This document shows positions 1,067-55,715 of a stretch of DNA of 64,000 nt, in pieces; position 1 is the first letter of the stretch; every line of letters begins with the position of its first letter. The stretch lies in NCBI RefSeq assembly GCF_044372965.1, contig NZ_JBILQX010000001.1, positions 40,806 through 104,805 on the forward strand, read 5' to 3'. Source of the stretch: Elstera sp. GTDB lineage: Bacteria > Pseudomonadota > Alphaproteobacteria > Elsterales > Elsteraceae. A program made the translations under genes and the position numbers. The notes under the pieces were generated by a model, which was not told the DNA's origin, did no database searches, and saw only the letters and a program-made list of their open reading frames with translations.

Positions 1067-2470
1067 ATGACCATTCGCGCAACTTACACCTTTACCGACG
1101 CGACTAACACCGCAGCTTCCTATAAGAATGCTATTCAATCGAATCTCACGGCGGCGGTCGAAGCGTGGTCCAAGGTGCTCGCGGGCGATGCGAGTATTCA
1201 GATTAGCGTTCAAACGTCGGGTTCGATCGGCAGCAATTACGGCGGCGGCTTTGCGGCGGATCTCGTGACGCACGGAGTTTCCGGTGGTAAATACCAGACG
1301 GAAGCGACGTTTGGTCACCAAATTCGGACGGGAATCGACGCAAACGGTAGCAAGTTCGACGCCAATATCATCATTAACGGTTATGGGTTGGATGAATTTT
1401 TCTTCGACCCATCGCCTTACGATAGCGGGGGAGATATCCCGAGCGATAAGTATGATTTTTATTCGTTGATGCTATACTCTGTTGGTAAAGCCCTTGGTTT
1501 TCATGGATTTCAAACAGCGGCGGCTAGTATTTACAGTAGAACCTATAAAACCATCTATGATGACCTCGTGGTTTATAAAGGTGGCACGCCCTATTTCAGC
1601 GGTGAAAACGTTAGAAAATATTATGGTTCGGATCTTGCGTTAAACCCGAATGATATTTACTCCATTAATACGAAAATATATAATGGCGAGCAGTTTACCA
1701 ATAGCGCCGTTAGCGAATCGGTTCTCCTCGGGCAGCGTCGGCAAATTTCGGCAATCGAAAAAGCCATGCTCGCCGACCAAGGGATTGGTACGGATCAGGC
1801 TGATATTTTAAAAGCCCATATCGATGTTTCGGGAAAGTCGATCAAACTCAATGCCGGGGCTGGAACCGATACGATCGTTTACGACGGCCGGAAAGCTGAC
1901 TATTCGGTTAAATACTCGGCCGCCGACGGGACCTACAAAGTAACCGGCAAGGGTTATGCCGATACATTGATTTCAGCCGAGCAAATTCGGTTTAGCGACG
2001 GCACCTATTGGATTGAAGATGCCGCTGGGGTGACTAATGGTGTTCACCGCTTCTATAATACTGCGACGAATTCCCATTTTTATACTGGCTCAAATGCAGA
2101 AACCAATAGCGTGCGCACGTCGATGCCCTATGCTGTCGAGGAAGGATTTGCCTTTGCCTCGGCGAGCGGTAAGACCGGCCTTGAGGTGTTCCGCTTCCAG
2201 AATGAAAAAACCGGCGCGTATTTTTATACGATCAGCACGTCTGAGCGGGACTCTATTCTAAAATCGCTACCGCAGTTTTCGTATCAGGGAAGCAGTTTCA
2301 AAGCCTATACCGCCGACAATGGCCCGCAGGAAGAACTTTATCGGTTCTACAATACGGCCAGCGGCGCGCATTTCTTCACAACGTCCGAAGCGGAGCGCGA
2401 TAATATTGTCGCCAACCTTCCTCTCTTGACCTACGAGGGCGTTGCCTTCTACGTCGATATTATGACCTAA
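1067..2470 (+). CDS. Large repeat protein with three C-terminal RFYN-x-G-HFYT-type repeats and a degenerate metzincin-like N-terminal region
   Basis: Three repeats: HRFYNTATNSHFYTGSNAETN, FRFQNEKTGAYFYTISTSERD, YRFYNTASGAHFFTTSEAERD (I recall this as a DUF5648-type repeat). LMLYSVGKALGF occupies the position of a HEIGHALGF zinc motif. No obvious signal peptide. G+C is lower than in neighbouring genes. Confidence 0.7.
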   Translation: MTIRATYTFTDATNTAASYKNAIQSNLTAAVEAWSKVLAGDASIQISVQTSGSIGSNYGGGFAADLVTHGVSGGKYQTEATFGHQIRTGIDANGSKFDANIIINGYGLDEFFFDPSPYDSGGDIPSDKYDFYSLMLYSVGKALGFHGFQTAAASIYSRTYKTIYDDLVVYKGGTPYFSGENVRKYYGSDLALNPNDIYSINTKIYNGEQFTNSAVSESVLLGQRRQISAIEKAMLADQGIGTDQADILKAHIDVSGKSIKLNAGAGTDTIVYDGRKADYSVKYSAADGTYKVTGKGYADTLISAEQIRFSDGTYWIEDAAGVTNGVHRFYNTATNSHFYTGSNAETNSVRTSMPYAVEEGFAFASASGKTGLEVFRFQNEKTGAYFYTISTSERDSILKSLPQFSYQGSSFKAYTADNGPQEELYRFYNTASGAHFFTTSEAERDNIVANLPLLTYEGVAFYVDIMT

Positions 2471-2474
2471 GCTG

Positions 2475-2511
2475 AAAAAAGTAGGGCCGCCCTGAGGGGC
2501 GGCCCTTTTTT
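2475..2511. terminator. Bidirectional intrinsic terminator between convergent genes
   Basis: A6, then stem GGGCCGCCC (2484-2492), loop TGAG, stem GGGCGGCCC (2497-2505), then T6. It lies between the stop at 2470 (+) and the clpA stop at 2518 (-). Confidence 0.8.
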
Positions 2512-2517
2512 GTGTTT

Positions 2518-4836
2518 CTACTCGACCAGTTCGGCTTCCGGCTCCGTCGCCTTGCGGCCCGGTGCGGAGGTAACAAGGAACGAGAGTTCCCCATCGCTCC
2601 CCACATCCACCTGAACATGCCCACCGTGGGCGAGCTTGCCGAACAGCAGTTCCTCGGCCAGCGGCTTTTTGACCGTATCTTGGATGACGCGGGCTAGAGG
2701 GCGCGCGCCATAGAGCGGATCGAAACCTTTCTTCGACAGCCAGGATTTGGCCGCTTCCGTTAGTTCCAGCACCACATGACGGTCGGCCAATTGCGCTTCG
2801 AGTTGGATAACGAACTTATCCACGACCCGATCCATCACCTCCGGCGACAGGTTGGCGAAGGGGATGGTGGCGTCCAGACGATTGCGGAACTCGGGCGTAA
2901 ACATCCGCTCGATGGCTTCTTTATCCTCGCCCGTGCGCCGTTCCCGCTCGAACCCGAAGGCGGCTTTAGCCATATCGGCCGCGCCCGCATTCGTCGTCAT
3001 GATCAGGATCACATTCCGGAAATCGACATTCTTGCCGTTGTGATCGGTCAGTTTGCCGTGGTCCATCACTTGCAGCAGGATATTGTACAGGTCCGGGTGG
3101 GCCTTTTCGATTTCATCCAGCAGCAGCACGCAATGGGGGTTCTGATCGATGGCATCGGTCAAGAGCCCGCCCTGATCGAAGCCTACATAGCCCGGCGGCG
3201 CACCAATCAGGCGGCTAACGGTATGGCGCTCCATATATTCCGACATGTCGAAGCGTTTCAGTTCGATGCCTAAAAGCCGCGCCAACTGGCGCGCCACTTC
3301 GGTCTTCCCGACGCCGGTAGGGCCGGAGAAAAGATAGTTCCCAATCGGCTTTTCAGCATCGCGCAGCCCCGCCCGCGCCAGTTTGATGGCGCTGGAGAGG
3401 GCTTTGATGGCTTCATCTTGCCCGAAGACCACCGTGGAAAGATCGCGCTCAAGGGTTTTCAGCACTTCGCGGTCGTCCGACGAGACGGCCTTTGGCGGGA
3501 TTCGGGCGATTTTGGCAACCACCCCCTCCACGTCTTTCACCGAAATCGTCTTCTTGCGTTTCGACAGCGGCAGCAGCATTTGCGCCGCCCCCACTTCGTC
3601 GATCACATCGATAGCCTTATCGGGCAGCTTGCGGTCGTTGATATAGCGCGCCGAAAGCTCCACCGCTGTGCGGATAGCCTCATTGGTGTAGCGCACCTTA
3701 TGGTGCTGCTCGTAATAGGGCTTGAGGCCCTTGAGGATCTTGATCGAATCTTCCACCGAAGGTTCGGCCACATCGATCTTCTGGAAGCGCCGCACCAACG
3801 CGCGGTCTTTTTCGAAGTAGCTGCGGTATTCCTTATAGGTAGTCGAGCCGATGCAGCGCAGGTTGCCCGCCGCTAACGCCGGTTTCAGCAGGTTCGAGGC
3901 ATCCATCGCCCCGCCCGAGGTTGCGCCGGCGCCGATAATCGTGTGGATTTCATCAATGAACAGCACGGCATTGGGATGGGCTTCAAGCTCGCCCAAAACT
4001 TGCTTCAACCGCTCTTCAAAATCGCCGCGATAACGCGTGCCCGCCAAGAGTGCGCCCATATCGAGCCCGAAGATAGTCGCGCCCAGCAACACTTCCGGCA
4101 CATCGCCATCGACGATACGTTTCGCCAGCCCCTCGGCAATCGCGGTTTTCCCCACGCCCGGATCGCCCACATAAAGCGGGTTATTCTTCGTGCGACGGCA
4201 CAAGATCTGGACGGTGCGATCCACTTCAGCCTCACGGCCGATCAGCGGATCGATCTTGCCGTTCGCCGCCTTCTTATTCAGATCGACGCAATAAGCTTCA
4301 AGCGCTTCTTGGCCCTTTTTCGCCTCTTTCCCCTCTTTCGGGGGCGATGACGGCGCAGCTTCCTCTTCAGCCCCCGCCGTGCGGCGGGTTTCCGAGCGGC
4401 CCGGCACTTTGGCGATACCGTGGGAGATGAAGTTCACCGCGTCGAACCGGCTCATATCCTGCTCTTGCAGGAAATACACGGCGTGACTTTCCCGTTCCGA
4501 GAACAGCGCCACCAGCACATTCGCGCCCGTAACTTCCGCCCGGCCCGACGATTGCACGTGGATCACCGCCCGCTGCACGACGCGCTGGAAGCCGGAGGTT
4601 GGCTTTGCGTCTTCGGTTCGGCTGCTGACGATATTCGACAGCTCGTTATCGAGATAATTGGTTAGGTCGCGGCGCAGCTTATCGAGATCGACACCGCAGG
4701 CGCGAAACACGCCCAACGCATCTTGATCGTCGGTGAGAGACATCAGGAGATGCTCCAGCGTGGCAAACTCGTGCCGACGCTTATTGGCAAGCTCCAGGGC
4801 CGTATGCAGGCTCTTTTCCAGGTTCCGCGAGAGCAT
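2518..4836 (-). CDS. clpA: ATP-dependent Clp protease ATP-binding subunit ClpA
   Basis: N-terminus MLSRNLEKSLHTALELANKRRHEFATLEHLL, and two AAA+ modules (GDPGVGKTAIAEG and GPTGVGKTEVARQL Walker A). It lies directly downstream of clpS. ATG at 4836 is preceded by GGAGAAGGAG; the ORF-track start at 4863 would overlap clpS. Confidence 0.95.
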   Translation of the reverse strand: MLSRNLEKSLHTALELANKRRHEFATLEHLLMSLTDDQDALGVFRACGVDLDKLRRDLTNYLDNELSNIVSSRTEDAKPTSGFQRVVQRAVIHVQSSGRAEVTGANVLVALFSERESHAVYFLQEQDMSRFDAVNFISHGIAKVPGRSETRRTAGAEEEAAPSSPPKEGKEAKKGQEALEAYCVDLNKKAANGKIDPLIGREAEVDRTVQILCRRTKNNPLYVGDPGVGKTAIAEGLAKRIVDGDVPEVLLGATIFGLDMGALLAGTRYRGDFEERLKQVLGELEAHPNAVLFIDEIHTIIGAGATSGGAMDASNLLKPALAAGNLRCIGSTTYKEYRSYFEKDRALVRRFQKIDVAEPSVEDSIKILKGLKPYYEQHHKVRYTNEAIRTAVELSARYINDRKLPDKAIDVIDEVGAAQMLLPLSKRKKTISVKDVEGVVAKIARIPPKAVSSDDREVLKTLERDLSTVVFGQDEAIKALSSAIKLARAGLRDAEKPIGNYLFSGPTGVGKTEVARQLARLLGIELKRFDMSEYMERHTVSRLIGAPPGYVGFDQGGLLTDAIDQNPHCVLLLDEIEKAHPDLYNILLQVMDHGKLTDHNGKNVDFRNVILIMTTNAGAADMAKAAFGFERERRTGEDKEAIERMFTPEFRNRLDATIPFANLSPEVMDRVVDKFVIQLEAQLADRHVVLELTEAAKSWLSKKGFDPLYGARPLARVIQDTVKKPLAEELLFGKLAHGGHVQVDVGSDGELSFLVTSAPGRKATEPEAELVE

Positions 4837-26352: not shown

Positions 26353-27153
26353 TTAAGCTTTAGTAATCTCGTCGGTCGAGACCGTCGGCAGGATCGGCAA
26401 ATTAAGCGATGCCAGCAGTGCCCGCACCTCTTGCCGAGCGGCAACATGGCTCATGGACACTTGGGCATTCACCCCTTCGTCGCGCAAATCCAGCAGCGTG
26501 AGGCCCTTCAAAAACAACTCGCGGAAGATCACGCGCTCGGAAAACCCAGGCGCAATGCGGAATCCCACCCGCCCGGCCAACGCCTCCAAGGCTTGCGCCA
26601 CGAGTTGCTTATTGCGCGCGTCCACATGGGCGAGACGATTGCGCATCACGATCCAATCCAGCGGCGGCAAGCGGCCCATCGCGCGGCGTTTGCGCTGCTC
26701 CCATACCATTTCGGCATAGGTGCTGGGCCGGATGACGGCCAGGGTTTCCGGGTCCACGTGGCCGATCACGTCGAAATCGATGAAACTATCATTGAGCGGT
26801 GTCACCAGCGTATCGGCGATAACATGAGCTTTGCGCGATAGCGGCGTATCGGCCCCTGGGCAGTCGATGACCAGCACCTGATGCCGCCGCCATAGGCCTT
26901 CGACCACCTCATCAAACTTCTCAGCTTCGGTGGGCAGCAAGGCGGCGTGCTCGGGAATCGGGATTTGTGCCCCGGTCATGGCGCGAAACGCTGTGCGATT
27001 CTGGAAATAGCGGGTGAGTGTGCCCTGACGCGCGTCGAGATCGAGCGAGGCGACGCTCAGCCCCTCCCGCAGCAACCCGATAATCAGGTGCATCGCGGTC
27101 GTGCTTTTGCCCGACCCGCCCTTTTCATTCCCCAAAACGATGATATGCGCCAT
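26353..27153 (-). CDS. mipZ: Division-plane positioning ATPase MipZ (ParA/MinD superfamily)
   Basis: MAHIIVLGNEKGGSGKSTTAMHLIIGLLREGLSVASLDLDARQGTLTRY is the deviant Walker A plus the MipZ-typical continuation. Size is 266 aa. Confidence 0.85.
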   Translation of the reverse strand: MAHIIVLGNEKGGSGKSTTAMHLIIGLLREGLSVASLDLDARQGTLTRYFQNRTAFRAMTGAQIPIPEHAALLPTEAEKFDEVVEGLWRRHQVLVIDCPGADTPLSRKAHVIADTLVTPLNDSFIDFDVIGHVDPETLAVIRPSTYAEMVWEQRKRRAMGRLPPLDWIVMRNRLAHVDARNKQLVAQALEALAGRVGFRIAPGFSERVIFRELFLKGLTLLDLRDEGVNAQVSMSHVAARQEVRALLASLNLPILPTVSTDEITKA

Positions 27154-27156
27154 TGG

Positions 27157-27936
27157 CTATATCCCTTTAAACACGGGGGCGGTTTTATTCACGAAAGCGG
27201 CAATGCCGGTTTGATAGTCTTCCGTATCGAAGCAGGCGAAGCCCTCGGCCAGTTCCGCTTCGGTCAATGGGGCCGCTTCGTCCAGACGGCGGGCGAAAGC
27301 CTTGTGCCAGCGGTTAACCAAAGGCGCGCCAGAGGCGATGCGCTCGGCGGCTTCCTGCGCTTCCACCAAAGCTTGCCCATCCTCGACAATGCGCGAAACG
27401 ATGCCATAGCCCTTGGCCTCGTCAACGCCGAAAATCCGGCCCTCCAGCAGAATCTCGACGGCGGCTTTGCGCCCTAACGCCCGAATGAAGGCCCCGATTT
27501 CGGGATAAGACATAACAAAGCCAAGCTTATTGATCGGCACGCCGAAGGTGGCGCTAGCCCCGGCGATGCGCACGTCCGAGAGGCACGCAAGCTCTACCCC
27601 GCCGCCGATGCAGCGGCCTTCGATGGCGGCGACGAGCGGATGCGGAAAATTCTCTAGCTGGGTAAGGGTCGCATACATCAGTTTGGCGTAGGCGCGCGCC
27701 GCATCGGGCGTCGCCCGCAAGGTTTGGAATTCCGAAATATCGCCGCCTGCGCAGAAATGATTGCCGGCACCGGTCAGAATAACGCAGCGAATACTATCGT
27801 CTTCGGCAAGCTCCGTGAGCGCCGCTCCCACGCCGCGCCAAAGATCGGCATTCAGCACATTGAGTTTCTCAGGGCGATTCAGCGTAACCGTTACAATCCC
27901 GCCCTGGCGCTCGCGTCCCAATGCTGCCGCACTCAT
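27157..27936 (-). CDS. Enoyl-CoA hydratase/isomerase (crotonase) family protein
   Basis: VTVTLNRPEKLNVLN...ILTGAGNHFCAGGDISEF...AAIEGRCIGGGVELA. ATG at 27936 is preceded by AAGGAGAG. Confidence 0.88.
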   Translation of the reverse strand: MSAAALGRERQGGIVTVTLNRPEKLNVLNADLWRGVGAALTELAEDDSIRCVILTGAGNHFCAGGDISEFQTLRATPDAARAYAKLMYATLTQLENFPHPLVAAIEGRCIGGGVELACLSDVRIAGASATFGVPINKLGFVMSYPEIGAFIRALGRKAAVEILLEGRIFGVDEAKGYGIVSRIVEDGQALVEAQEAAERIASGAPLVNRWHKAFARRLDEAAPLTEAELAEGFACFDTEDYQTGIAAFVNKTAPVFKGI

Positions 27937-28009
27937 GCCGCTCTCCTTCTGATGCCGCTCCTCATCAGAAATCAGAAGCCCGCAGCCCACGCAACAAGAT
28001 TCCCCCAAG

Positions 28010-28034
28010 GCTAGACAGGGACGCTAGACAGGGA
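28010..28034. promoter_or_regulatory. Tandem direct repeat GCTAGACAGGGA x2 in the divergent crotonase/pyrE promoter region
   Basis: GCTAGACAGGGA at 28010-28021 and again at 28023-28034, separated by a single C (13-nt period). Confidence 0.3.
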
Positions 28035-28088
28035 GGCGCGGGCGCTTTATCACGCCCTCACCGTGTTTGCGCCCGTAAAGGTCTCGCT

Positions 28089-28748
28089 ATGCCCCTCACC
28101 CCCGCCCAATCCGTCGCCCGACTCCTGCTCGAAATCGAAGCGGTGCATATTCGCCCGCAACAGCCGTTTACGCTCACCTCGGGCACCTTCAGCCCGGTGT
28201 ATGTGGATTGCCGCAAGATTATCGGCTTCCCGCGCGCCCGCACCGCCGTGATCGATTTCGCCGTGCAGAACATCGCTGAGAATATCGGCTACGAGCAGAT
28301 CGATGCAGTTGCGGGCGGGGAGACGGCGGGCATTCCTTACGCCGCGTGGCTCGCCGACAGGCTGGGCTTGCCGATGCTTTACGTGCGCAAAAAACCCAAA
28401 GGGTTCGGGCGGAATGCTCAGATCGAGGGGCATTTTAAGGATGGCGACCGCGTGCTGCTGGTGGAAGACCTAGCAAGCCAGGGCAGCAGCAAGATCACCT
28501 TTATCAACGCCCTGCGCGAAGCCGGGGCGCGCTGCGACCATACCCTCGTCGTCTTCTTCTACGCCGCCCTCACAGGGAGCTTGCAGGTGCTGGATGACCT
28601 CAACGTTACCCTGCACTACCTCTCCACCTGGAAAGAGGTGCTGGAAGTGGCAGATATCGATAGCCGTATTGCAAGTGCCGATTTAGCCGAAGTCCGCAGC
28701 TTCCTTGCCAACCCCGATGCATGGTCGAAAGCCCACGGCGGGCCGTAA
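28089..28748 (+). CDS. pyrE: Orotate phosphoribosyltransferase
   Basis: FTLTSGTFSPVYVDCRKI and the PRPP-binding loop VLLVEDLASQGSS. ATG at 28089. Confidence 0.9.
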   Translation: MPLTPAQSVARLLLEIEAVHIRPQQPFTLTSGTFSPVYVDCRKIIGFPRARTAVIDFAVQNIAENIGYEQIDAVAGGETAGIPYAAWLADRLGLPMLYVRKKPKGFGRNAQIEGHFKDGDRVLLVEDLASQGSSKITFINALREAGARCDHTLVVFFYAALTGSLQVLDDLNVTLHYLSTWKEVLEVADIDSRIASADLAEVRSFLANPDAWSKAHGGP

Positions 28749-28794
28749 GTTGCCCCCGCCCCCGGCAAATTTCGGGGGAGCGGTTATCGCAGGC

Positions 28795-29085
28795 TTACGA
28801 GTTACTGTTTGCGACTTTGGCCGCTATCCGGTCGGTTGAGAGAGCCCGTAGTTCACGCTGCAAGTTATGAATCTTGCAGCTTATATCGCTTTGCGTGTTT
28901 AGAAGGGATTGATACGCTTCGAAGAAAACATGCTTATCACTATCGAGCAATCTCATCTGATAATTTGTGTGAATATCGCTTTCCACGAGTGATCTGCTAA
29001 TCTTTATAAAACGATCCATTTCGCTTGATAGCAAAACTAAACAAGCAAGATTATATGATAAAATGTTTTCGGCTCTTTGAGTCAT
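28795..29085 (-). CDS. Small alpha-helical hypothetical protein (H1), paralogue of 31576..31950
   Basis: AT-rich ORF. RAENILSYNLACLVLLSSEMDRFIKISRSL aligns with RARY-LAANLSCLNLMVIELEKLIQLGTEL of H2 (11/30 identical by hand). ATG at 29085 has an AGGGTG SD; GTG at 29094 is the alternative. Confidence 0.5.
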   Translation of the reverse strand: MTQRAENILSYNLACLVLLSSEMDRFIKISRSLVESDIHTNYQMRLLDSDKHVFFEAYQSLLNTQSDISCKIHNLQRELRALSTDRIAAKVANSNS

Positions 29086-29178
29086 TTTTAGCACCCTGGC
29101 ACGATCTATATTTAGATTAATTTTCCGATATTATTTTAATTTTCGCATTTCTTATCCTCATTTTTGCGAGAAGATAGT

Positions 29179-29239
29179 GTTTGCGGCCTCACCGTGGCGA
29201 GATGGGCATGGGTGCCAGGGAATCGGTGAGGCCGCAAAC
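29179..29239. repeat. Perfect 16-bp inverted repeat with 29-nt loop
   Basis: GTTTGCGGCCTCACCG (29179-29194) and CGGTGAGGCCGCAAAC (29224-29239). G+C-rich, set in an AT-rich intergenic region, with no flanking T/A run. Confidence 0.6.
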
Positions 29240-29295
29240 AACGCACCGCCGAGCGTGGCGTTACGCAGCTCTACTCAAAGCGTTTTTGGCTCAAA

Positions 29296-29324
29296 CTGGC
29301 GTCCACGCCCACAGGGCAGGACGC
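29296..29324 (+). repeat. Copy 1 of a 29-nt hairpin-containing motif
   Basis: CTGGCGTCCACGCCCACAGGGCAGGACGC. Matches 32093-32121 at 27/29 positions. Internal stem GCGTCC/GGACGC, followed by a T-rich tail (AAAATTCACTTATTTTT). Confidence 0.6.
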
Positions 29325-29359
29325 AAAATTCACTTATTTTTAGCGCGATACATACGATG

Positions 29360-30529
29360 TTATTCAAAAGCATGCGTCTCATGAACCCGATGCGCTTGCA
29401 GCCATTGGGTCGGGGCGCACCCTGTCAAGCGTTTGAAGGCAGCATTAAAAGCGGATTTCGAATTGTACCCCACCAACAAGGCGACCTCTAAAATCGTCTT
29501 CTCGGTCCCCGCCGACGATAGCAGGATAGACTGCGCATCTTGTATTCGGAGCGCGTTGAGATATTCCGAAAAACTCTGCCCTAAACCATCGTTCAAGGCT
29601 TGGGAGATATATTCTCGGCGAATCGAAAGATGATCGGCTAAGGATTGCACCGTAAGGTTCGAATCGCGCCAGAGCTTACCTACCCGAAATTCAGTCTCAA
29701 TCCGGCCAACGATCCTTTGAATATCGGCATCGTCCAAACCCGATTTCTGATAGCGCACGGTTGGCGCGCTGGGCGGGCTCACTTGAAAGATAACAGGCCG
29801 TGCCTTCAGGGGTTTCCGCGCCCAAAACGCATAAGGTTGCGTGATTGCCTGAAATGTCATGAAATATACGACAATTGAAAATATCAAAATATCGATATCC
29901 ATTAATAGCATCCAGTCAAAATAATGATTTAAAACAACATTCGACATAAAAAATGCTGCCCAGCAGGTAAGAAGCGACCGGAAAAAGGCACAAATCCATC
30001 GTTTAGAATAATTATTCTTGAAGTGAGTCGCGGAGATTAATTTCCAAATGAATATAATCCCCCCACCCTGATGCAGGGTGACAAGCGCAACGCAAAATTT
30101 TATTGCGCCCTCAAAATCTTGATAGGCAGAAGCAATATCATCTGTATTACCGATAATAGCGCTGCGATAGAAACAAAAATAAAAGACAGGGAGGGACGTT
30201 ATAAAAATAAAAATTGATATAATTGAGTTTACTGTGAAAAATTTCTTAACACCCATATCTGGGTGAATAGATATTTTGAAATATGACAGCCCGAAAGGAG
30301 AGATTAACGTCATGAAAAAAAGATTTACAATATATCCATACGGACGCAATTCGAGCGCGATTAAACGCAAACTCACACCTGTAAAAATAGAAATTATATA
30401 AAAAACCAAAAATGCAACAAAAAAATAATTAGCCTTTGTCCGACGCGCTTTCCTAAGAAGCAACAATATAATAAAAAATGCTAGATTTACTGCCGTAAGT
30501 AATACCAAGAACTGTGAAACAATCTGCAT
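29360..30529 (-). CDS. Membrane-anchored AraC-family transcriptional regulator (multi-TM N-terminus + C-terminal HTH)
   Basis: The C-terminal 100 aa (LTVQSLADHLSIRREYISQALNDGLGQSFSEYLNALRIQDAQSILL...ILEVALLVGYNSKSAFNAAFKRLTGCAPTQW) form an AraC double HTH. The N-terminal ~250 aa contain about 7 hydrophobic helices. A spot count on a coding line gives ~37% G+C. ATG at 30529 has an AGGTG SD; the ORF opens at TTG 30616. Confidence 0.8.
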   Translation of the reverse strand: MQIVSQFLVLLTAVNLAFFIILLLLRKARRTKANYFFVAFLVFYIISIFTGVSLRLIALELRPYGYIVNLFFMTLISPFGLSYFKISIHPDMGVKKFFTVNSIISIFIFITSLPVFYFCFYRSAIIGNTDDIASAYQDFEGAIKFCVALVTLHQGGGIIFIWKLISATHFKNNYSKRWICAFFRSLLTCWAAFFMSNVVLNHYFDWMLLMDIDILIFSIVVYFMTFQAITQPYAFWARKPLKARPVIFQVSPPSAPTVRYQKSGLDDADIQRIVGRIETEFRVGKLWRDSNLTVQSLADHLSIRREYISQALNDGLGQSFSEYLNALRIQDAQSILLSSAGTEKTILEVALLVGYNSKSAFNAAFKRLTGCAPTQWLQAHRVHETHAFE

Positions 30530-30835
30530 AACCACACCTGGGACACTAATTTTGGGAGCACACTCTCTAACTCGCGAGTCGCTCAATCCCATACCAGGTC
30601 TTTTGTGGACAGACAATATACAATTAGAAAAAAATTGATGGAGACATCCAAAGAGCGCGTCATCAAAAATATTAACAAAACACTAACGCAATATAAAATA
30701 AGAAATTCTATAAATATTAATATTTTTTATATGAATTCTAAACGTAGAATACAAAAATAATAAAATAAATACACAAGCCAATAGGGGCGATATATAAGCT
30801 ATACGCTATACATTGCCCCCAGTAAAAAGCACATC

Positions 30836-31579
30836 TTACTTCCAGTCATTAACACCGTAGCGCATGAGAATCGCATTCAACTCGCCGGATGCCCGGAGCG
30901 CGCGGATTCCTGCATCGAATGTTGCCGCCAAATCCCGACTTCTAGCGGGCGATGCTGGAGATAATCCGAAATAGATCGCTTCCCCAGCCAAACACCCCGC
31001 CTTGGCGAGCTTGAGATTATTGGCCTTGATATAGTAGGAGCCAACGCCATCATCTTCCAATAGAATGGTCAACCGACCAGCGGCCAGTTTTCTAAAATTT
31101 TGATCGGTCCCACTGGTTGCCGTTAGGAAATCGACCGAAGCGGCATTAGCACGGTCCTCCAGCCAATCGGTTATTTCGGCATAAGAGACATCGCGCAAAG
31201 CGCCAATCTTCTGCCCTTTCAGACTTGCCGTGCCCTTGTACTGCCAGTCCGAATCCTCCCGGCGGAAAAAGCAATACCGTTGTACCCCGATTGGCTCCTC
31301 GGGAAAAATAAAGTCCGGCGCTTCAGTCTTGGCGGGGGACAGCGCCGCCGCAAAATCTCCTTGCCGTGTGCTTTCGAGAGCGCGCGCCCAAGAGGCGAAC
31401 GTCACAGAAACATTGTGTCCGCTGCGCTCTAAAACCCGTTTCGTAATATCGACAGCGTACCCCAAATCAGACGAATTCTCGCAAACAAAAGGGCAAAAAT
31501 CGGTCGTTATGATCTTCACTTCCTGGGCCTGCGCGGAAAAAGTGAAAATCAACGCACACAAAACACCTAGTTTTTTCAT
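30836..31579 (-). CDS. Periplasmic solute-binding protein (family 3 / amino-acid-binding type), orphan
   Basis: Signal peptide MKKLGVLCALIFTFSAQA and the two-lobe SBP pattern (YAVDITKRVLERSGHNV...FASWARAL...GDFAAAL...IGALRDVSY). Strong GGAGG SD. No permease or ATPase gene adjacent. Confidence 0.8.
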   Translation of the reverse strand: MKKLGVLCALIFTFSAQAQEVKIITTDFCPFVCENSSDLGYAVDITKRVLERSGHNVSVTFASWARALESTRQGDFAAALSPAKTEAPDFIFPEEPIGVQRYCFFRREDSDWQYKGTASLKGQKIGALRDVSYAEITDWLEDRANAASVDFLTATSGTDQNFRKLAAGRLTILLEDDGVGSYYIKANNLKLAKAGCLAGEAIYFGLSPASPARSRDLAATFDAGIRALRASGELNAILMRYGVNDWK

Positions 31580-31950
31580 GTTTTTCCTCCAGATAAGATT
31601 GACTTAACGCTATCCGATAACAGAATTATGTTTCTTTTAATTTCGGAGTTCATTGAATTGAGTCCATTATTATAGCGATATATAGTGTTAATAACATTTT
31701 GATCATTGGGATCGTCACCGAGCATATTCCGCATGCACTGTTCCAACTCCGTACCAAGTTGGATGAGTTTTTCGAGTTCGATGACCATCAAGTTCAAACA
31801 GGAAAGATTCGCGGCCAAGTATCTCGCGCGAAAATCCTCACGATCATCCATCAATGTCAGTTGAAGCTGAGCAATCGCGTCAAACGGCTTCAACTCAGTT
31901 CCGCCTGAACAGAGGCGCGTTATGGCAGAGGGCGGGTGTTGTGCGGACAT
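31576..31950 (-). CDS. Small alpha-helical hypothetical protein (H2), paralogue of H1, translationally coupled to the SBP gene
   Basis: The stop TGA overlaps the SBP ATG (ATGA at 31576-31579). Similarity to H1 begins at internal Met34 (alternative start 31851). Confidence 0.5.
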   Translation of the reverse strand: MSAQHPPSAITRLCSGGTELKPFDAIAQLQLTLMDDREDFRARYLAANLSCLNLMVIELEKLIQLGTELEQCMRNMLGDDPNDQNVINTIYRYNNGLNSMNSEIKRNIILLSDSVKSILSGGKT

Positions 31951-32092
31951 CGCGTCATCATCCCCTAGATGGGATCGTGTTGCTGAGGCGTCGACGGCGC
32001 GAACTTGGGATATGACAGGGGTGCCCGCGCCGCCAACGATCAGGGGATAACGGCCCGCCTGACTGGCGCAAATTGCGGGAAAATGGGCGGTT

Positions 32093-32121
32093 CTGGCGTC
32101 CTCGCCGACAGGGCAGGACGC
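32093..32121 (+). repeat. Copy 2 of the 29-nt hairpin-containing motif
   Basis: CTGGCGTCCTCGCCGACAGGGCAGGACGC followed by GACTTATTTAAAAATT. Same orientation as copy 1. Confidence 0.6.
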
Positions 32122-32261
32122 GACTTATTTAAAAATTATCTGGAATTCTGTATTTAGTTATGATCGACGATTGAGACCGTGCGCCAATATACGCGCACCA
32201 TACCCTAATCTCCCAAAGGCTTGGCAAGGAGCAACAGCGCAGAGAACTGCCGCCCGCTACA

Positions 32262-32285
32262 CCCCCCCCCCCCCCCCCCCCCCCC
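32262..32285. repeat. Homopolymeric C24 (G24 on the gltX-sense strand) tract
   Basis: 24 consecutive C. The count was cross-checked against the translation of ORF 32221..32409 (H then P x8). It lies 29 nt beyond the gltX stop codon. Confidence 0.95.
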
Positions 32286-32314
32286 GGGCCGACGGCATTC
32301 CCTCCATCCCTTAA

Positions 32315-33700
32315 TTAGGCGAGCGCGTCGGCGAGTCGCCCGAGGCTTTCTTCGCGCCCGAGCAGCGCCATCACCTCGGCAACGCCAGGGGAATTGGTTC
32401 GCCCGGTGAGCGCCGCCCGCAGGGGTTGGCCGAGTTTGACGAAGGGCACGTCCAGCGCTTTGGCCTGGGCTTTCACCAGCGCGGCCAACGCATCGTGCGA
32501 CCAATCATCAACGCCCTGCAACGCCTCATACACGGCGCGAACGCGGGCGAGCGCCTCCTCGGTCAGAACCGCGTGCGCCGCCTCTTCCACCGGAATCGGG
32601 CGCGGGGCGAGGTAGAAAGCCGCCGTTTCGGCTAAGTGAGGGACGGTTTTCGCCCGCTCCTTCAGCCCCGGCATCGCCGCCGTCAGCAGGGCTTTCGCCG
32701 GATCGTCGGGCGCGCGGCCCAGGTGCGGCAGAATGAGTTCCGCAAGGCGCGCATCATCGGCGTGTTTCATAAAGTGGAAATTGGCCGAAACCAGCGCGTC
32801 GGCATCGAGCCGCGCCGGGGATTTACCCAAATGCGACAGGTCGAACGCCGGAGCCGCGCTCTCCATCGTCGGATGCTCCAGCCCCGAGGCCCAGCCGAGC
32901 CCCATCAGGTAGGAGACCACCGCTTCCGGCAGGAAGCCTTGATCGCGATACTCGCCAATCCCGACCGCGCCGTGACGCTTGGAAAGCTTCTGCCCGTCCG
33001 GCCCGTGAATGAGCGGAATATGGGCATAAACCGGGCGCGCAACGCCCAAGGCGTCATAGATCTGCGCTTGGCGGGCGGCGTTGGTCATATGATCGTCGCC
33101 GCGAATAATATGGGTCACGCCCATATCGATATCGTCCACCACGGTCGAGAGCATATAGGTCGGCGAGCCGTCGCCGCGCAGCAGGATGAAATCATCGAGA
33201 TCGGAGTTGGCGAAGGTGATCGTGCTATGCACCCGGTCGGGGATGATCGTGCTGCCCGTGCGCGGGGTTTTCAGGCGAATGACGAAGGGCGCGCCCGCTG
33301 GGGCCTCGCTCGGGTCGCGGTCGCGCCAGCGGCCATCGTAGCGCGGCGGCAGCCCGCGCCGGGCGGCTGCCTTGCGCATCTCTTCCAGTTCTTCAGCAGT
33401 CGCGTAGCAGCGATAGGCTTTTCCCGCCGCCAGCAATTGTTCCGCGACTTCCACGTGCCGGGTGAGGCGCTGGTGCTGAAACACCGGCTCGCCGTCGAAT
33501 TTCAGGCCGAGCCAGTCCAGCCCCTCGAAAATCGCCTGAACCGCCGCGTCGGTCGAACGCTCGCGGTCGGTATCATCGATCCGCAGCAGCGCTTTGCCGC
33601 CCGTGTGGCGGGCGTACAGAAGGGTAAACAGGGCGGTGCGCGCCCCGCCGATATGCAGCATCCCCGTCGGCGACGGGGCGAAACGTGTGATGGTGCTCAT
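32315..33700 (-). CDS. gltX: Glutamate--tRNA ligase
   Basis: MSTITRFAPSPTGMLHIGGARTALF (HIGH motif) and KLSKRHG (KMSKS motif). Confidence 0.95.
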   Translation of the reverse strand: MSTITRFAPSPTGMLHIGGARTALFTLLYARHTGGKALLRIDDTDRERSTDAAVQAIFEGLDWLGLKFDGEPVFQHQRLTRHVEVAEQLLAAGKAYRCYATAEELEEMRKAAARRGLPPRYDGRWRDRDPSEAPAGAPFVIRLKTPRTGSTIIPDRVHSTITFANSDLDDFILLRGDGSPTYMLSTVVDDIDMGVTHIIRGDDHMTNAARQAQIYDALGVARPVYAHIPLIHGPDGQKLSKRHGAVGIGEYRDQGFLPEAVVSYLMGLGWASGLEHPTMESAAPAFDLSHLGKSPARLDADALVSANFHFMKHADDARLAELILPHLGRAPDDPAKALLTAAMPGLKERAKTVPHLAETAAFYLAPRPIPVEEAAHAVLTEEALARVRAVYEALQGVDDWSHDALAALVKAQAKALDVPFVKLGQPLRAALTGRTNSPGVAEVMALLGREESLGRLADALA

Positions 33701-33812
33701 GCCGGGCTTTGTAGCAGCGGGCGACGGTTTGGGCTAGGGTGGAGGCTCTCTGATGTTCGGGTCAACCCGCTTTCGCATTGGCTAACATGTATAAAGTAAT
33801 TTTTGAGTTAAC

Positions 33813-34298
33813 ATGAACCCAAACTCCCATCACTTCCTACGCTTAACCGTATACGCAGGATGCGAGATTCTTATTTATAGCCTTATACCCATGATAATAA
33901 TTTTATTCCTCCAATGGTTATTTTTTGCTTTGGCGGCATTTATATTTTTTCCAATACTCATTTTTGGTGGCGCAGGCTGGTGGGGCTTTATTAAAACAGC
34001 CTCTCGAACACTCAAAGGTGAGTCGAGCTTTAGGATGTTCGATACCGTTATGATATTCTTTGGAATGGTTATCTATGCGCCATATCTAATATGGGCCGGT
34101 GACAGTTTTTTTATGACGAAAACCTCAGGTGCTGGGACTGTAATTGCCTATTTGATTAATCTGTCACCGATTTTAATGGGAGTAACCTTGCTCGTTCGGC
34201 GCTTTCTTCTGACGCTCAAGCGCCCCGTCGCCGTCGATCCCACGCAAACAGTAGTGGCGCTAGAACCCGATCATAGAGCGCCACCGCCAGCGGTTTGA
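33813..34298 (+). CDS. AT-rich small membrane protein, four predicted TM helices (cassette B1)
   Basis: ATG start. Hydrophobic blocks at about aa 10-33, 35-58, 75-95 and 105-128. The last ~26 codons are read antisense through the DCC-derived repeat. A spot count gives ~30% G+C. Confidence 0.5.
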   Translation: MNPNSHHFLRLTVYAGCEILIYSLIPMIIILFLQWLFFALAAFIFFPILIFGGAGWWGFIKTASRTLKGESSFRMFDTVMIFFGMVIYAPYLIWAGDSFFMTKTSGAGTVIAYLINLSPILMGVTLLVRRFLLTLKRPVAVDPTQTVVALEPDHRAPPPAV

Positions 34299-34428
34299 TC
34301 CCCCGCGCGCCGACAATCCGCCCGAGCCAGCGGTAGCGCGGCAGGTGGGACCAGAGCAGCAGGAAGCCGTCCACGCCGATATGCAGCATCCCCGTCGGCA
34401 AAAGGGCGAAACGTGTGACGGTGCTCAT
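34216..34428 (-). pseudogene. Chimeric gltX'-'DCC ORF created by duplication junction
   Basis: MSTVTRFALLPTGMLHIG (GltX codons 1-18) is fused in frame to VDGFLLLWSHLPRYRWLGRIVGARGIKPLAVALYDRVLAPLLFAWDRRR (C-terminus of the DCC protein at 34959..35345). Confidence 0.65.
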
Positions 34429-34476
34429 GCTGGGCTTTGTAGCAGCGGGCGGCGGTTTGCGTTAGGGTTGAGACTG
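34228..34476. repeat. Composite duplicated block: DCC 3' end joined to gltX 5' end/upstream
   Basis: 34231-34383 matches 34971-35123 (9 mismatches in 153 nt by hand). 34374-34476 matches 33646-33748 (10 mismatches in 103 nt). The two overlap at the shared CGCCGATATG. Confidence 0.85.
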
Positions 34477-34507
34477 GTGAGCAGGCACTAATCAAACGAG
34501 ATCAAAT

Positions 34508-35038
34508 TTGTTAAATTTTTTAAAGAGCCCAACCCTAAAAGAGCCCCTCACCCGCACCCAAACGATATACAATATTTTTTTAATCATAATACAAATCTCA
34601 TTATACACCGCATCTCTTTTTAGCAATATTATAATATTGATTATCCTAATTTTATCATCCATTGGAATATTGATTGCAATATTTATTGCATGTATTGTTT
34701 ATTTATTTTCAGATAAACTTTTTTCCGATATTAGAATAGATTATAAAAAGAAAGTTTTTGATGCCAAAACAATAATATTATGCATTGTGTATTTTTTTCT
34801 ATCTATTCCTGCGTTATTTATAATCATATTTATAGGTGGTTACGAAGATTGGCCGGAATATATTTACATGATTATATTGTTCATGCCCTTCAACCCCATA
34901 CTGACCCTTACAGCCCTATCAACCCGGCGGCACTTCTATCGCCGACTCGCAAACAGCATCACGATGCCCGCCGCCGATCCCACGCAAACAGCAGCGGCGC
35001 CAGAACCCGATCATAGAGCGCCACCGCCAGCGGCTTGA
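34508..35038 (+). CDS. Very AT-rich small membrane protein, four predicted TM helices (cassette B2)
   Basis: Only a TTG start is available. Hydrophobic blocks at about aa 20-40, 41-68, 88-112 and 118-140. The C-terminal tail DPTQTAAAPEPDHRAPPPAA is encoded antisense to the DCC 3' end. A spot count gives ~20% G+C. Confidence 0.4.
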   Translation: MLNFLKSPTLKEPLTRTQTIYNIFLIIIQISLYTASLFSNIIILIILILSSIGILIAIFIACIVYLFSDKLFSDIRIDYKKKVFDAKTIILCIVYFFLSIPALFIIIFIGGYEDWPEYIYMIILFMPFNPILTLTALSTRRHFYRRLANSITMPAADPTQTAAAPEPDHRAPPPAA

Positions 35039-35345
35039 TCTCCCGCGCGCCAACGATCCGCCCAAGCCAGCGGTAGCGCGGCAGGTGGGACCAGAGCAGC
35101 AGGAAGCCGTCCACGCCGATATGAACCGCGCCTTGGGCATCCAGCACATGCAGGCGCTTGCGCACGTCAATCGGATCGAAGCCGCGCGCCCGCGCCGCTT
35201 CGGGGTCGCGGCCAATGTCGATCCAGCCGAGGCCGAGGCCCGCGCGGGCGTCCTGGGCGCGGTAATGGTCGATTTCCGTCCGGCAGACCGGGCAAGAGCC
35301 ATTGTAGAGCGTTGTGCAGGCGGGGAGGTTCGGCGTGTCGGTCAT
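34959..35345 (-). CDS. Thiol-disulfide oxidoreductase DCC family protein (DUF393)
   Basis: N-terminal LYNGSCPVCRTEIDHYR (CxxC) and the C-terminal region typical of DCC proteins. Its start overlaps the upstream permease stop by 4 nt. Confidence 0.85.
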   Translation of the reverse strand: MTDTPNLPACTTLYNGSCPVCRTEIDHYRAQDARAGLGLGWIDIGRDPEAARARGFDPIDVRKRLHVLDAQGAVHIGVDGFLLLWSHLPRYRWLGRIVGAREIKPLAVALYDRVLAPLLFAWDRRRAS

Positions 35346-36691
35346 GAACTCGTCTCGTTGCGCGTGCCGAACAATCCCGTCGGGCGGAGGATCAACACGC
35401 CGACCAGCAGCACGAACACGGCTAAATCGCGCATCTCATTGGAGATAAAGGCGGCGAAGAGGATTTCAACCAGCCCGACCAGCATTGCGCCTGCCATCGC
35501 TCCCGTCAGCGTGCCGATCCCGCCGAGAATCGCCCCCGTGAGCGCTTTGAAACCAAGGGCGAGGCCGATGCTATGGTCGGTCTGGCCGTAATAGACCACC
35601 GACACCAACCCGCCGACGCCCGCAAGCGCCGTTGAAAGCGCAAAAGCCCGCGCGATGACGCCATTCACCGGCACCCCCAGCAGCCCCGCCATCGTCGGAT
35701 CAGCGGCGCAGGCGCGCAAATCCCGCCCGAAGCGCGTGCGTTACACGGTAGTGTGCAACAGGAGGCCGATGATCGCCGTCAGCAGAATAATGGCAAGCTG
35801 GCTAAAGCTGAAATGCACGGTCGAGTCGCCCATGTGCAGCGTCCAGCCGCCTTGAATCAGGGGGGGAAGGATTTTACCGCGCGCGCCTTGGGCGAGCAGT
35901 ACCGAGTTTTGCACCACCAGCGACAGGCCAATCGCCGCCACCAGGGGCGAGAGCCGATTGCCGCGCCCGATCGGCCGGTAAACGGTGCGGTCAATCACCG
36001 CCCCCAGCACGCCACCATAGGCCAGAACGGCGATTAGGGCGGCAGGCAGCAGAATCCAGGCACTCTCCACCCCCGCCATACCGAGACCGAGAATAACGAT
36101 CACCGCCAGGATCGAGCCGACCATCGCCAGTTCACCAAAGGCGAAATTCACGATTTCCAGCAGGCTAAAAATCAACGCGTAGCCAACCGCGATGAGCGCA
36201 TAGAGGCTGCCGACGGTGAGCGCGTTCAGAAGCTGCTGAAGCCCATAGGCCGAGCCCGCCAGGGCGGATTTCTGCACCGGCTGCGCGGCGTCGAAGCGCT
36301 TCGGCCCCTCGCTTGCCATCCGCCCCCAAACCTCCAGCACGGTTACTTCGCGGTCCGACAGCGGGCCGCCGCGCAGGGTTTCGACGGCGCGCAAGGGCGG
36401 GGTTTCCAAGGCTTGCGCCCGACCAGCGAAATGGCAGATCAAGCCATCCTTCTGCCCATCCCCCCAGCGCCAAGCGATTTGGACCGAGAGCGGGCCGATC
36501 ACGTCGGGCGGCGCGCGAACGATGGTTTCTCCCGCCGGCTCGAAGGCCCCCGTGAGGGCGGCGCAGGCGCGAAACAAATCATCGGGCTTGCGCTCGCAGG
36601 CACCGAGCAACAACCCGGCGAGCAGCAGCAGGCCGAAGCGAGGGCGAGCGTGCCGGAGCCAACGCCTTAGGAAAGCCATAATCAGCGCCAA
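35342..36691 (-). pseudogene. LivH-type branched-chain amino acid ABC permease interrupted by an in-frame TAA, with lipoprotein-like N-terminal extension
   Basis: ORFs 35741..36691 and 35342..35719 are in the same frame, separated by a TAA (35741-35743) plus 7 sense codons (RTRFGRD). The joined sequence reads ...LLLHTTV*RTRFGRDLRACAADPTMAGLLGV..., the conserved LivH loop. The N-terminal 130 aa carry a lipobox-like LLLGAC. Confidence 0.7.
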
Positions 36692-55640: not shown

Positions 55641-55715
55641 GGGCGCTTAGCTCAGCGGTAGAGCACATCCTTCACACGGATGGGGTCACAGGTTCAATCC
55701 CTGTAGCGCCCACCA
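55641..55715 (+). tRNA. tRNA-Val (anticodon CAC), CCA encoded
   Basis: Hand-folded cloverleaf: acceptor GGGCGCT/AGCGCCC, D arm GCTC-AGCGGTA-GAGC, anticodon arm CATCC-TTCACAC-GGATG, variable loop GGGTC, T arm ACAGG-TTCAATC-CCTGT, then ACCA. Confidence 0.93.

Follow-up and report, generated by a model that had tools for sequence, protein, structure and literature searches.

In the 64,000-nucleotide (nt) stretch of Elstera sp. contig NZ_JBILQX010000001.1 analyzed here (hereinafter the window), the stop codons of pyrE and gltX are separated by a 3,566-bp segment (positions 28749-32314) with 46% G+C versus 60% for the window. We find that this segment is a real, coherent, AT-rich and fast-evolving accessory cassette restricted to one lineage. 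It encodes a membrane protein with a C-terminal AraC-type DNA-binding domain (AraC), an orphan solute-binding protein (SBP), and two small helical proteins, H1 and H2. Membrane one-component regulators are common, yet their mechanism is known almost wholly from single-pass ToxR-like proteins. To our knowledge, polytopic regulators of the AraC type remain uncharacterized, and our literature search turned up no characterized example. The four minus-strand open reading frames (ORFs) described in an initial annotation of the locus, including the overlap of the H2 stop with the SBP start, are confirmed. The features of the segment are as follows, with transmembrane abbreviated as TM, helix-turn-helix as HTH, and the ratio of nonsynonymous to synonymous substitution rates as dN/dS.

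28749..32314, no strand assigned: whole accessory segment, delimited by blastn homology to the island-free L013-L016, which ends at both stop codons, and by composition
28795..29085, minus strand: H1, small helical protein of the H family, 96 amino acids (ORF, orthologues, dN/dS, alignment with the H2 hairpin)
29178..29240, no strand assigned: inverted repeat with perfect 17-bp arms and a loop of 29 nt, which separates the AraC-proximal motif from the AT-rich stretch and promoter region of H1
29296..29324, minus strand: copy 1 of a 29-nt palindrome, imperfect and GC-rich; the AraC stop lies 36 nt before it and the H1 start 211 nt after it
29360..30529, minus strand: AraC, 7-TM membrane protein with a C-terminal AraC/XylS double HTH, 389 amino acids (HTH_18, HTH_AraC, hydropathy, dN/dS, L093 homologue)
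30530..30835, minus strand: AT-rich intergenic region upstream of AraC, 33% G+C, the presumed AraC promoter
30836..31579, minus strand: SBP, orphan family-3 solute-binding protein with a signal peptide, 247 amino acids (SBP_bac_3, PDB relatives, dN/dS)
31576..31950, minus strand: H2, small helical protein, 124 amino acids, translationally coupled to SBP (ORF, dN/dS, AlphaFold2 model)
32093..32121, minus strand: copy 2 of the same palindrome, with the H2 start 143 nt further on
32262..32285, no strand assigned: homopolymer tract, C24 on the plus strand, at the segment edge facing gltX, 30 nt downstream of that gene's stop (read from the sequence)

The borders of the segment are given by blastn comparison with island-free Elstera relatives, in which homology ends precisely with the two stop codons, at 28748 for pyrE and at 32315 for gltX; therefore all of 28749-32314 is accessory, its GC-richer stretches included. 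The abrupt drop in G+C content is confirmed, as all three spot counts of the initial annotation are reproduced exactly (0.167, 0.367, and 0.609), and the deviation is also seen in 300-nt windows and at third codon positions. The flanks have a G+C content of 0.60-0.64, which falls to 0.33-0.40 over 28800-29250, 29850-30900, and 31500-31800, with 0.48-0.55 between these stretches. The G+C content at third codon positions (GC3) is 0.42 for H1, 0.35 for the TM part and 0.57 for the linker/HTH part of AraC, 0.56 for SBP, and 0.48 for H2, versus 0.68-0.82 for the flanking genes. By its deviant composition and variable presence among close relatives the segment qualifies as a genomic island; the recombinase gene, tRNA target, and att-type flanking repeats of an integrase-mediated island were not found. 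Specifically, the Pfam search detected no integrase, transposase, or recombinase domain among the scanned proteins, and no tRNA lies within 20 kb of the segment (the nearest is at 55641), as the initial annotation had noted. The sole direct repeat (29 nt) lies within the island, with one copy upstream of each H gene, rather than at its termini. An Rfam scan of 27000-36500 gave no match.

With a GltX that shares 96% identity with its counterpart in Elstera litoralis Dia-1 and 91-94% with those of three Elstera-like metagenome-assembled genomes (MAGs), the host is a species of Elstera (Rhodospirillales). The state of the pyrE-gltX site varies among relatives. In L016 the site is empty, with a 45-bp spacer, whereas in E. 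litoralis Dia-1 (L013), L014, and L015 it is occupied by a 1.1-kb RES-toxin/Xre-antitoxin pair, the RES and Xre/ParS-type (DUF2384-like) assignments being made by reading the sequences rather than by profile search. This pair is located at 5027-5971 in L013 and at 6427-7415 in L014, and the RES ORF of L013 appears to be split into 139 and 83 amino acids. Within the island, comparison with the relatives revealed neither traces of the RES/Xre pair nor leftover ancestral spacer DNA. The four-gene cassette is present in the metagenome lineages L001-L012 and L098, in which GltX is 97-97.6% identical (L098 is a 777-kb MAG contig identical to L008 and represents the same genome). Freshwater samples with the cassette include JGI 3300042446 and 3300042482 and SRR27420587. 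The pyrE-gltX site is a swap or recombination hot spot without an integrase signature.

A strongly divergent version of the cassette is found at the same locus in L093, where the GltX C-terminus is 81% identical, in the order gltX, TM-AraC, motif, a 119-residue helical protein named H3, SBP, and pyrE. The identities to the window proteins are 34% for AraC, about 20% for H, and 59% for SBP; since AraC, H, and SBP are kept together in L093 despite this divergence, the genes belong together. The co-localization that the initial annotation had proposed to look for in other genomes recurs in L093, however only within Elstera and at this locus. For the order motif-H2-SBP-AraC-motif-H1 seen today, the simplest history that we infer is that an L093-like AraC-motif-H-SBP unit was duplicated in tandem and that the first AraC and the last SBP were then lost. 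In L094, a degenerate, 5'-truncated second pyrE (13-324; 56% amino acid identity over residues 92-195, with stops) lies upstream of SBP in the orientation of the intact pyrE. Because of this degenerate copy, the SBP-H1 block of L094 is bracketed by direct pyrE repeats, an arrangement suggestive of cassette movement via homologous (Campbell-type) recombination in the flanking gene.

Comparison of the window with L008, L009, and L011 gave dN/dS values of 0.10-0.11 for AraC, 0.18 for SBP, 0.20-0.22 for H1, and 0.20-0.31 for H2, compared with 0.04-0.07 for pyrE and gltX. These values are well below 1, and the genes are therefore under purifying selection, although a somewhat relaxed one. The synonymous divergence (dS) between lineages is 0.19-0.75 for the island genes and 0.36-0.63 for the flanks; this similarity indicates that the cassette has been inherited together with its flanks within the subclade and that its acquisition is not recent. 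No low-GC donor or relative outside Elstera was found among protein clusters, GTDB species genomes, and JGI metagenomes, and on the evidence of these searches the cassette appears to be restricted to the genus Elstera. Hence the proposal of the initial annotation that this is a horizontally acquired module holds in that the segment is accessory, deviant in composition, and placed at a variable site; however, the segment, foreign in composition as it is, is not recent, and no donor came to light. It is extremely improbable that the locus consists of decaying, unrelated remnants of foreign DNA without current function, and we disfavor this explanation. The pseudogenization of SBP in one sublineage and the presence of orphan genes without annotated relatives would fit it, but all four genes are intact in both the window and L011, with dN/dS of 0.10-0.31 at dS up to 0.75. 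Moreover, the genes have strong ribosome-binding sites and translational coupling, the non-coding motif is conserved, and the gene set is kept in L093.

The product of the AraC gene, whose start was fixed at MQIVSQF by comparison of orthologues, has the architecture given in the initial annotation, with about seven TM helices fused to a C-terminal AraC double HTH. The C-terminal domain of approximately 100 residues with two HTH motifs assigns the protein to the AraC/XylS family. In Pfam, it scores 66.1 bits with HTH_18 (cutoff 33.6; profile positions 1-79 of 80) and 40.1 bits with HTH_AraC, and many NCBIfam AraC equivalogs match the same region, all of them below their full-length cutoffs. Hydropathy and the positive-inside rule predict seven hydrophobic segments in an N-out/C-in topology with a cytoplasmic HTH, and the predicted outside-facing pieces comprise 7, 12, 25, and 11 residues. 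The full-length homologue in L093 shares 34% identity with it across the entire 389 residues, TM domain included (E 6e-59), and at this level of identity conserved polar residues of the TM domain are kept, for example HQG in TM5. The composition changes sharply within the AraC gene (GC3 of 0.35 in the TM-coding part versus 0.57 in the linker/HTH part), which could reflect either a mosaic origin or the codon or amino acid bias of the TM helices.

Relatives of the AraC TM domain were found only within Elstera. A word-indexed search with this domain recovered Elstera orthologues only, and when its profile was run exhaustively with HMMER against 1.84 billion representatives, the only matches were its own cluster and one 61-residue fragment. 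Scans of GTDB species genomes with the AraC protein detected no relative, nor did scans of viral contigs with the TM domain give any match. In JGI metagenomes, the AraC alignment recovered one further full-length copy (L098), all other matches being unrelated HTH-only architectures (e.g., YesN/YesS-like proteins). The PDB profile search with the TM domain gave nothing significant, and the PADLOC match of AraC was non-significant (E 0.88). V. cholerae VC1825 was considered as a possible transmembrane AraC regulator; the paper that we found did not bear this out, and this candidate was dropped.

The SBP gene encodes a family-3 solute-binding protein, as judged from its SBP_bac_3 fold and export signal. 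The match to SBP_bac_3 (PF00497) is barely above the cutoff (27.0 versus 26.4 bits), and the PDB relatives are amino acid binders of the GlnPQ/LAO type and one sensor-kinase periplasmic domain (E 7e-11 to 1e-7). The N-terminus reads MKKLGVLCALIFTFSAQA followed by QE, with the signal-peptide site between AQA and QE read directly from the sequence. The subfamily is characterized by four conserved cysteines, including those of TDFCPFVCE, which replaces the usual PPF motif. A basic residue (K/R/H) occupies the position aligned with a conserved Arg of the solved binder 4zef, an Arg that binds the carboxylate of the ligand. Relatives with 59% and 52% identity are encoded in L093 and L094, respectively, whereas those with 46-48% identity occur in other contexts (L096 and the P0015 contig), beside secreted proteins with DUF5648, RTX, or beta-lactamase domains. 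No cognate permease or ATPase gene adjoins the SBP gene in the window, L001-L012, L093, L094, L096, or the P0015 contig. Thus the orphan state of this protein, pointed out in the initial annotation, is borne out in four kinds of context, and the possibility raised there that the gene is a remnant of an ABC system complete in relatives can be dismissed for the contexts examined. Elsewhere in the window, the G+C content dips to 48.6% at 1067-2470, where a 467-residue ORF has C-terminal repeats of the form FRFYN..HFYT..E. These repeats resemble the DUF5648 domain, to which we assign them tentatively, and DUF5648 proteins adjoin the SBP homologues in L096 and the P0015 contig.

In the initial annotation, the SBP was suggested to report a ligand to the membrane AraC in the manner of ToxR or TcpP. 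In its strict form this explanation takes the SBP as the obligatory periplasmic ligand sensor, which docks on AraC in a ToxR/ToxS- or LuxP/LuxQ-like fashion, with H1 and H2 as accessories. We consider it unlikely, although two very divergent versions of the cassette unite SBP and TM-AraC at the same locus, the SBP is an orphan without transporter genes nearby in any examined context, and the sensor-kinase periplasmic domain 3h7m is among its closest solved relatives. In L008/L098 and L009 the SBP is a pseudogene, broken into fragments of 105 and 88 amino acids and of 94 and 51 amino acids, respectively, with the start and signal peptide lost, while H2, AraC, and H1 remain intact and under purifying selection in the same genomes. 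The breakdown of SBP in one sublineage with the other three genes intact therefore argues that the SBP is not an obligatory sensor. In addition, the predicted periplasmic loops of AraC are no longer than 7-25 residues, SBP homologues also occur in unrelated contexts beside DUF5648/RTX-type secreted proteins, and the SBP of L094 lacks an adjacent AraC.

H1 and H2 have no match in Pfam, NCBIfam, PADLOC, or PHROGs, and the PDB profile search with the H proteins gave nothing significant, so the description of these helical proteins as belonging to no recognized family is upheld. The start of H1 was fixed at MTQRAE by comparison of orthologues, which are 83-87% identical in L008, L009, and L011 and 60% identical in L094. 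A word-indexed search with H2 yielded only 4 clusters among 5.8 billion proteins, all of them Elstera orthologues. Stop and start codons overlap as ATGA at the junction of H2 and SBP, where a GGAGGA ribosome-binding site is located 6 nt upstream of the SBP ATG. The AlphaFold2 model of H2 has a core formed by an antiparallel two-helix hairpin (residues 37-77 and 84-119, predicted local distance difference test (pLDDT) of 82-96) and an unstructured N-terminus of 36 residues. A Foldseek search of the PDB and BFVD with this model retrieved generic antiparallel coiled coils only, all with E > 0.1.

The conserved block that the initial annotation had seen in H1 and H2 is real but marginal. BLASTP found no similarity between the two proteins, whereas their Smith-Waterman score is 47 compared with 27 +/- 4.8 for shuffled sequences (5-6 of 2000-3000 shuffles reach 47, p ~0.002). 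The same procedure applied to H3 of L093 gave p ~0.002 versus H1 and p ~0.0003 versus H2. The three alignments are mutually consistent (H1 8-82 corresponds to H2 44-118 and to H3 36-109), and hhalign of the H1 group against the H2 and H3 group gave P = 3.2e-4 over 70 columns. Over this aligned core the hairpin of H2 is modeled with confidence. According to the alignment of flanking DNA, H3 is the positional orthologue of H2, yet this relationship goes undetected by BLASTP. Since even positional orthologues have diverged beyond the reach of BLASTP, the weak similarity between H1 and H2 is what paralogy predicts for such fast-evolving proteins. On the basis of these comparisons, and of the conserved 29-nt palindrome that precedes each H gene, H1 and H2 are probably paralogues.

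The two candidate transcription units of the cassette, H2-SBP and H1, are each preceded by a copy of the 29-nt GC-rich imperfect palindrome GCGTCCTGCCCTGTSGGCGWGGACGCCAG (minus strand), which is present in exactly two copies in the window (0 expected). In L001, L008, L009, and L011 the two copies are almost unchanged, whereas the intergenic DNA is otherwise 80-86% identical. A variant with 22 of 29 identical positions is found in L093 at the same relative position, with the AraC stop about 50 nt before it and H3 135 nt after it, and the region around it, upstream of H3, aligns with the region upstream of H2. The motif folds as a hairpin (-19.5 kcal/mol for copy 1 and -17.3 kcal/mol for copy 2). 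A sigma-54 and an EcfG-type promoter were looked for by eye within the motif, and both were rejected; scans with promoter and terminator consensus sequences gave results not above shuffle expectation. The 17-bp inverted repeat upstream of H1 has a fold of -39 kcal/mol (z = -5.1); it is conserved in L008, L009, and L011 and absent upstream of H2. At the other edge of the segment, the C tract varies in length, with 24 nt in the window versus 8, 9, 9, and 10 nt in the otherwise near-identical contigs L001-L004, and about 9 extra bases lie beside it in the window. This difference may represent slipped-strand variation or a poly-G sequencing or assembly artefact.

Taken together, these data lead us to a picture that we regard as plausible, if somewhat short of probable, in which a membrane one-component AraC regulator drives the H2-SBP and H1 units, the H proteins act as modulators, and the SBP is dispensable. 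According to this scheme, AraC would reside in the membrane and sense its signal mainly via its own TM bundle, where conserved polar residues such as HQG in TM5 are located, and would activate the two motif-bearing transcription units. The H proteins would be cytoplasmic coiled-coil partners that modulate the regulator by protein contact, as a feedback device or an anti-activator, whereas the SBP might be a dispensable periplasmic accessory, either a co-sensor or a regulated product. A more far-reaching version is unlikely in our estimate: here the cassette would be a new self-contained unit, in which a 7-TM receptor of novel sequence and possibly novel fold is fused to an AraC domain, the SBP serves as co-sensor, and the hairpin proteins bind the cytoplasmic linker. 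If true, such a unit would be an AraC-based counterpart of the ToxR/ToxS-type co-component cassettes, diversifying rapidly at a hot spot.

Several observations weigh against the former scheme. The statistics of the H1/H2 homology are weak, and the AlphaFold2 model of full-length AraC is unusable (pLDDT 42), so that the support for the proposed ligand-sensing bundle comes from the conserved polar residues. AraC-family sites are usually AT-rich direct repeats rather than GC-rich palindromes, and an AraC binding site was not identified in the cassette. Alternatively, the 29-nt motif could form a 5' stem-loop in the RNA, terminate the upstream gene, or bind some other factor. Finally, L094 appears to lack an adjacent AraC: its SBP gene is followed, without an intervening AraC gene, by the H1-like gene, which adjoins the intact pyrE. 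This absence is to be read with the limit that the contig breaks off 467 nt ahead of the SBP gene, on its upstream side. Both H and SBP genes may thus function without the regulator.

The latter arrangement also bears on a simpler explanation, namely that AraC is the island's own activator or anti-silencer, and that H and SBP are its cargo, for instance a periplasmic binding or scavenging protein with a cytoplasmic helper, without any feedback. AT-rich acquired DNA often carries its own AraC-type activator. Examples of this are given in the ANR/AggR literature (PMC4983702). The motif-H(-SBP) units of the cassette indeed resemble regulated transcription units, and L094 keeps SBP and H1 in the absence of an adjacent AraC. 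We nevertheless hold this explanation to be doubtful: the H proteins, modeled as cytoplasmic coiled-coil hairpins without enzymatic or transport features, are hard to see as a payload, and the SBP, the only obvious payload, is the decaying gene.

Another conceivable role is that of a conflict module, i.e., a toxin-antitoxin-like, defense, or competition system. The occupation of the same site by the RES/Xre pair in L013-L015, the divergence of the H proteins of positional orthologues beyond BLAST recognition, and the variable AT-rich small membrane proteins in the neighboring gltX-DCC spacer would be consistent with such a role. However, H1, H2, and SBP have no match in PADLOC or PHROGs, no toxin, nuclease, or NTPase domain is present, and dN/dS is well below 1. 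Comparison with protein models of known anti-phage defense and toxin-antitoxin systems did not place the cassette among them, and we consider this role very improbable.

Beyond gltX, as seen from the cassette, positions 33643-35123 contain a tandem duplication (about 735 bp). The region 33643-33747, which covers the gltX 5' end and upstream DNA, is 90% identical to 34371-34475, and the region 34229-34383, which covers the 3' part of a DCC1-like gene, is 94% identical to 34969-35123. Each duplication unit contains a different AT-rich ORF for a small multi-TM protein, located at 33813-34298 (161 amino acids, 45% G+C) and 34508-35038 (176 amino acids, 37% G+C). Each protein has a C-terminus (DPTQT..EPDHRAPPPA) whose coding sequence extends into the GC-rich part of the repeat, where it is antisense to the DCC gene. 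Orthologues of the 161-residue ORF were found in E. litoralis, L014, and L015, and those of the 176-residue ORF in L098 only; neither was found in L016. The gltX-DCC spacer looks like a second variable spacer.

The locus of approximately 3.6 kb provides a compact natural test case, since it comes in rearranged, SBP-decayed, and apparently AraC-less variants, and it offers two candidate target promoters marked by the conserved motif together with two candidate modulators, H1 and H2. It also illustrates how, in a high-GC alphaproteobacterium, different accessory modules are exchanged in the spacer between housekeeping genes without the help of integrases. Its practical importance is limited, as the genes are confined to one little-studied freshwater genus and the sensing logic is conjectural.

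Among the known systems, the transmembrane transcription regulators (TTRs) form a widespread class, 27% of which have more than two TM regions (PMC10269533, Demey et al., 2023). The cassette AraC combines a DNA-binding domain and TM segments in one polypeptide and, given its predicted topology, can be assigned to this class. The characterized TTRs ToxR, TcpP, and CadC have an N-terminal winged helix, one TM segment, and a periplasmic domain, whereas the cassette AraC has a C-terminal double HTH behind seven predicted TM helices, almost no periplasmic mass, and a TM domain found in Elstera only. The ToxR/TcpP/VtrA co-component systems combine an N-terminal OmpR-type winged helix with one TM segment, a sensor domain in the periplasm, and a co-component encoded by the adjacent gene, a feature set that is not present in the cassette. 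ToxR/ToxS and VtrA/VtrC, virulence regulation systems described in PMC9214523, share with the cassette a membrane transcription factor beside a periplasmic partner in a small, fast-diverging, and horizontally mobile unit. The cassette differs in that its partner is a class-II SBP rather than a protein of the ToxS/VtrC type, in the family and topology of the regulator, and in the dispensability of the SBP in one sublineage.

The small helical proteins are best compared with the ANR family (Aar, Rnr, and Cnr), which are anti-activators of AraC/XylS regulators of less than 10 kDa, with three predicted helices and the signature A10/E14/A22/W26/A29/W43/R47 (PMC4983702). Similarly to ANRs, H1 and H2 are small, all-helical, and probably oligomerizing proteins encoded beside an AraC-family regulator in AT-rich acquired DNA; however, they are two-helix hairpins of 11-14 kDa without tryptophan and without Pfam or NCBIfam match, and do not show the structural characters of ANRs. 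By analogy, ANRs offer the best functional parallel for H1 and H2. The cassette SBP resembles the orphan family-3 SBPs that act as sensor partners or domains (3h7m; GrrP-type, TIGR04262) in that it has the SBP_bac_3 fold and a signal peptide but no cognate permease or ATPase gene in its vicinity, whereas it differs from the GrrP type by a TIGR04262 score of 12.5 bits versus the 190-bit cutoff and by its four conserved cysteines, with TDFCPFVCE in place of PPF. Overall, the cassette is a polytopic AraC-type membrane one-component regulator with orphan partners and does not constitute a new category.

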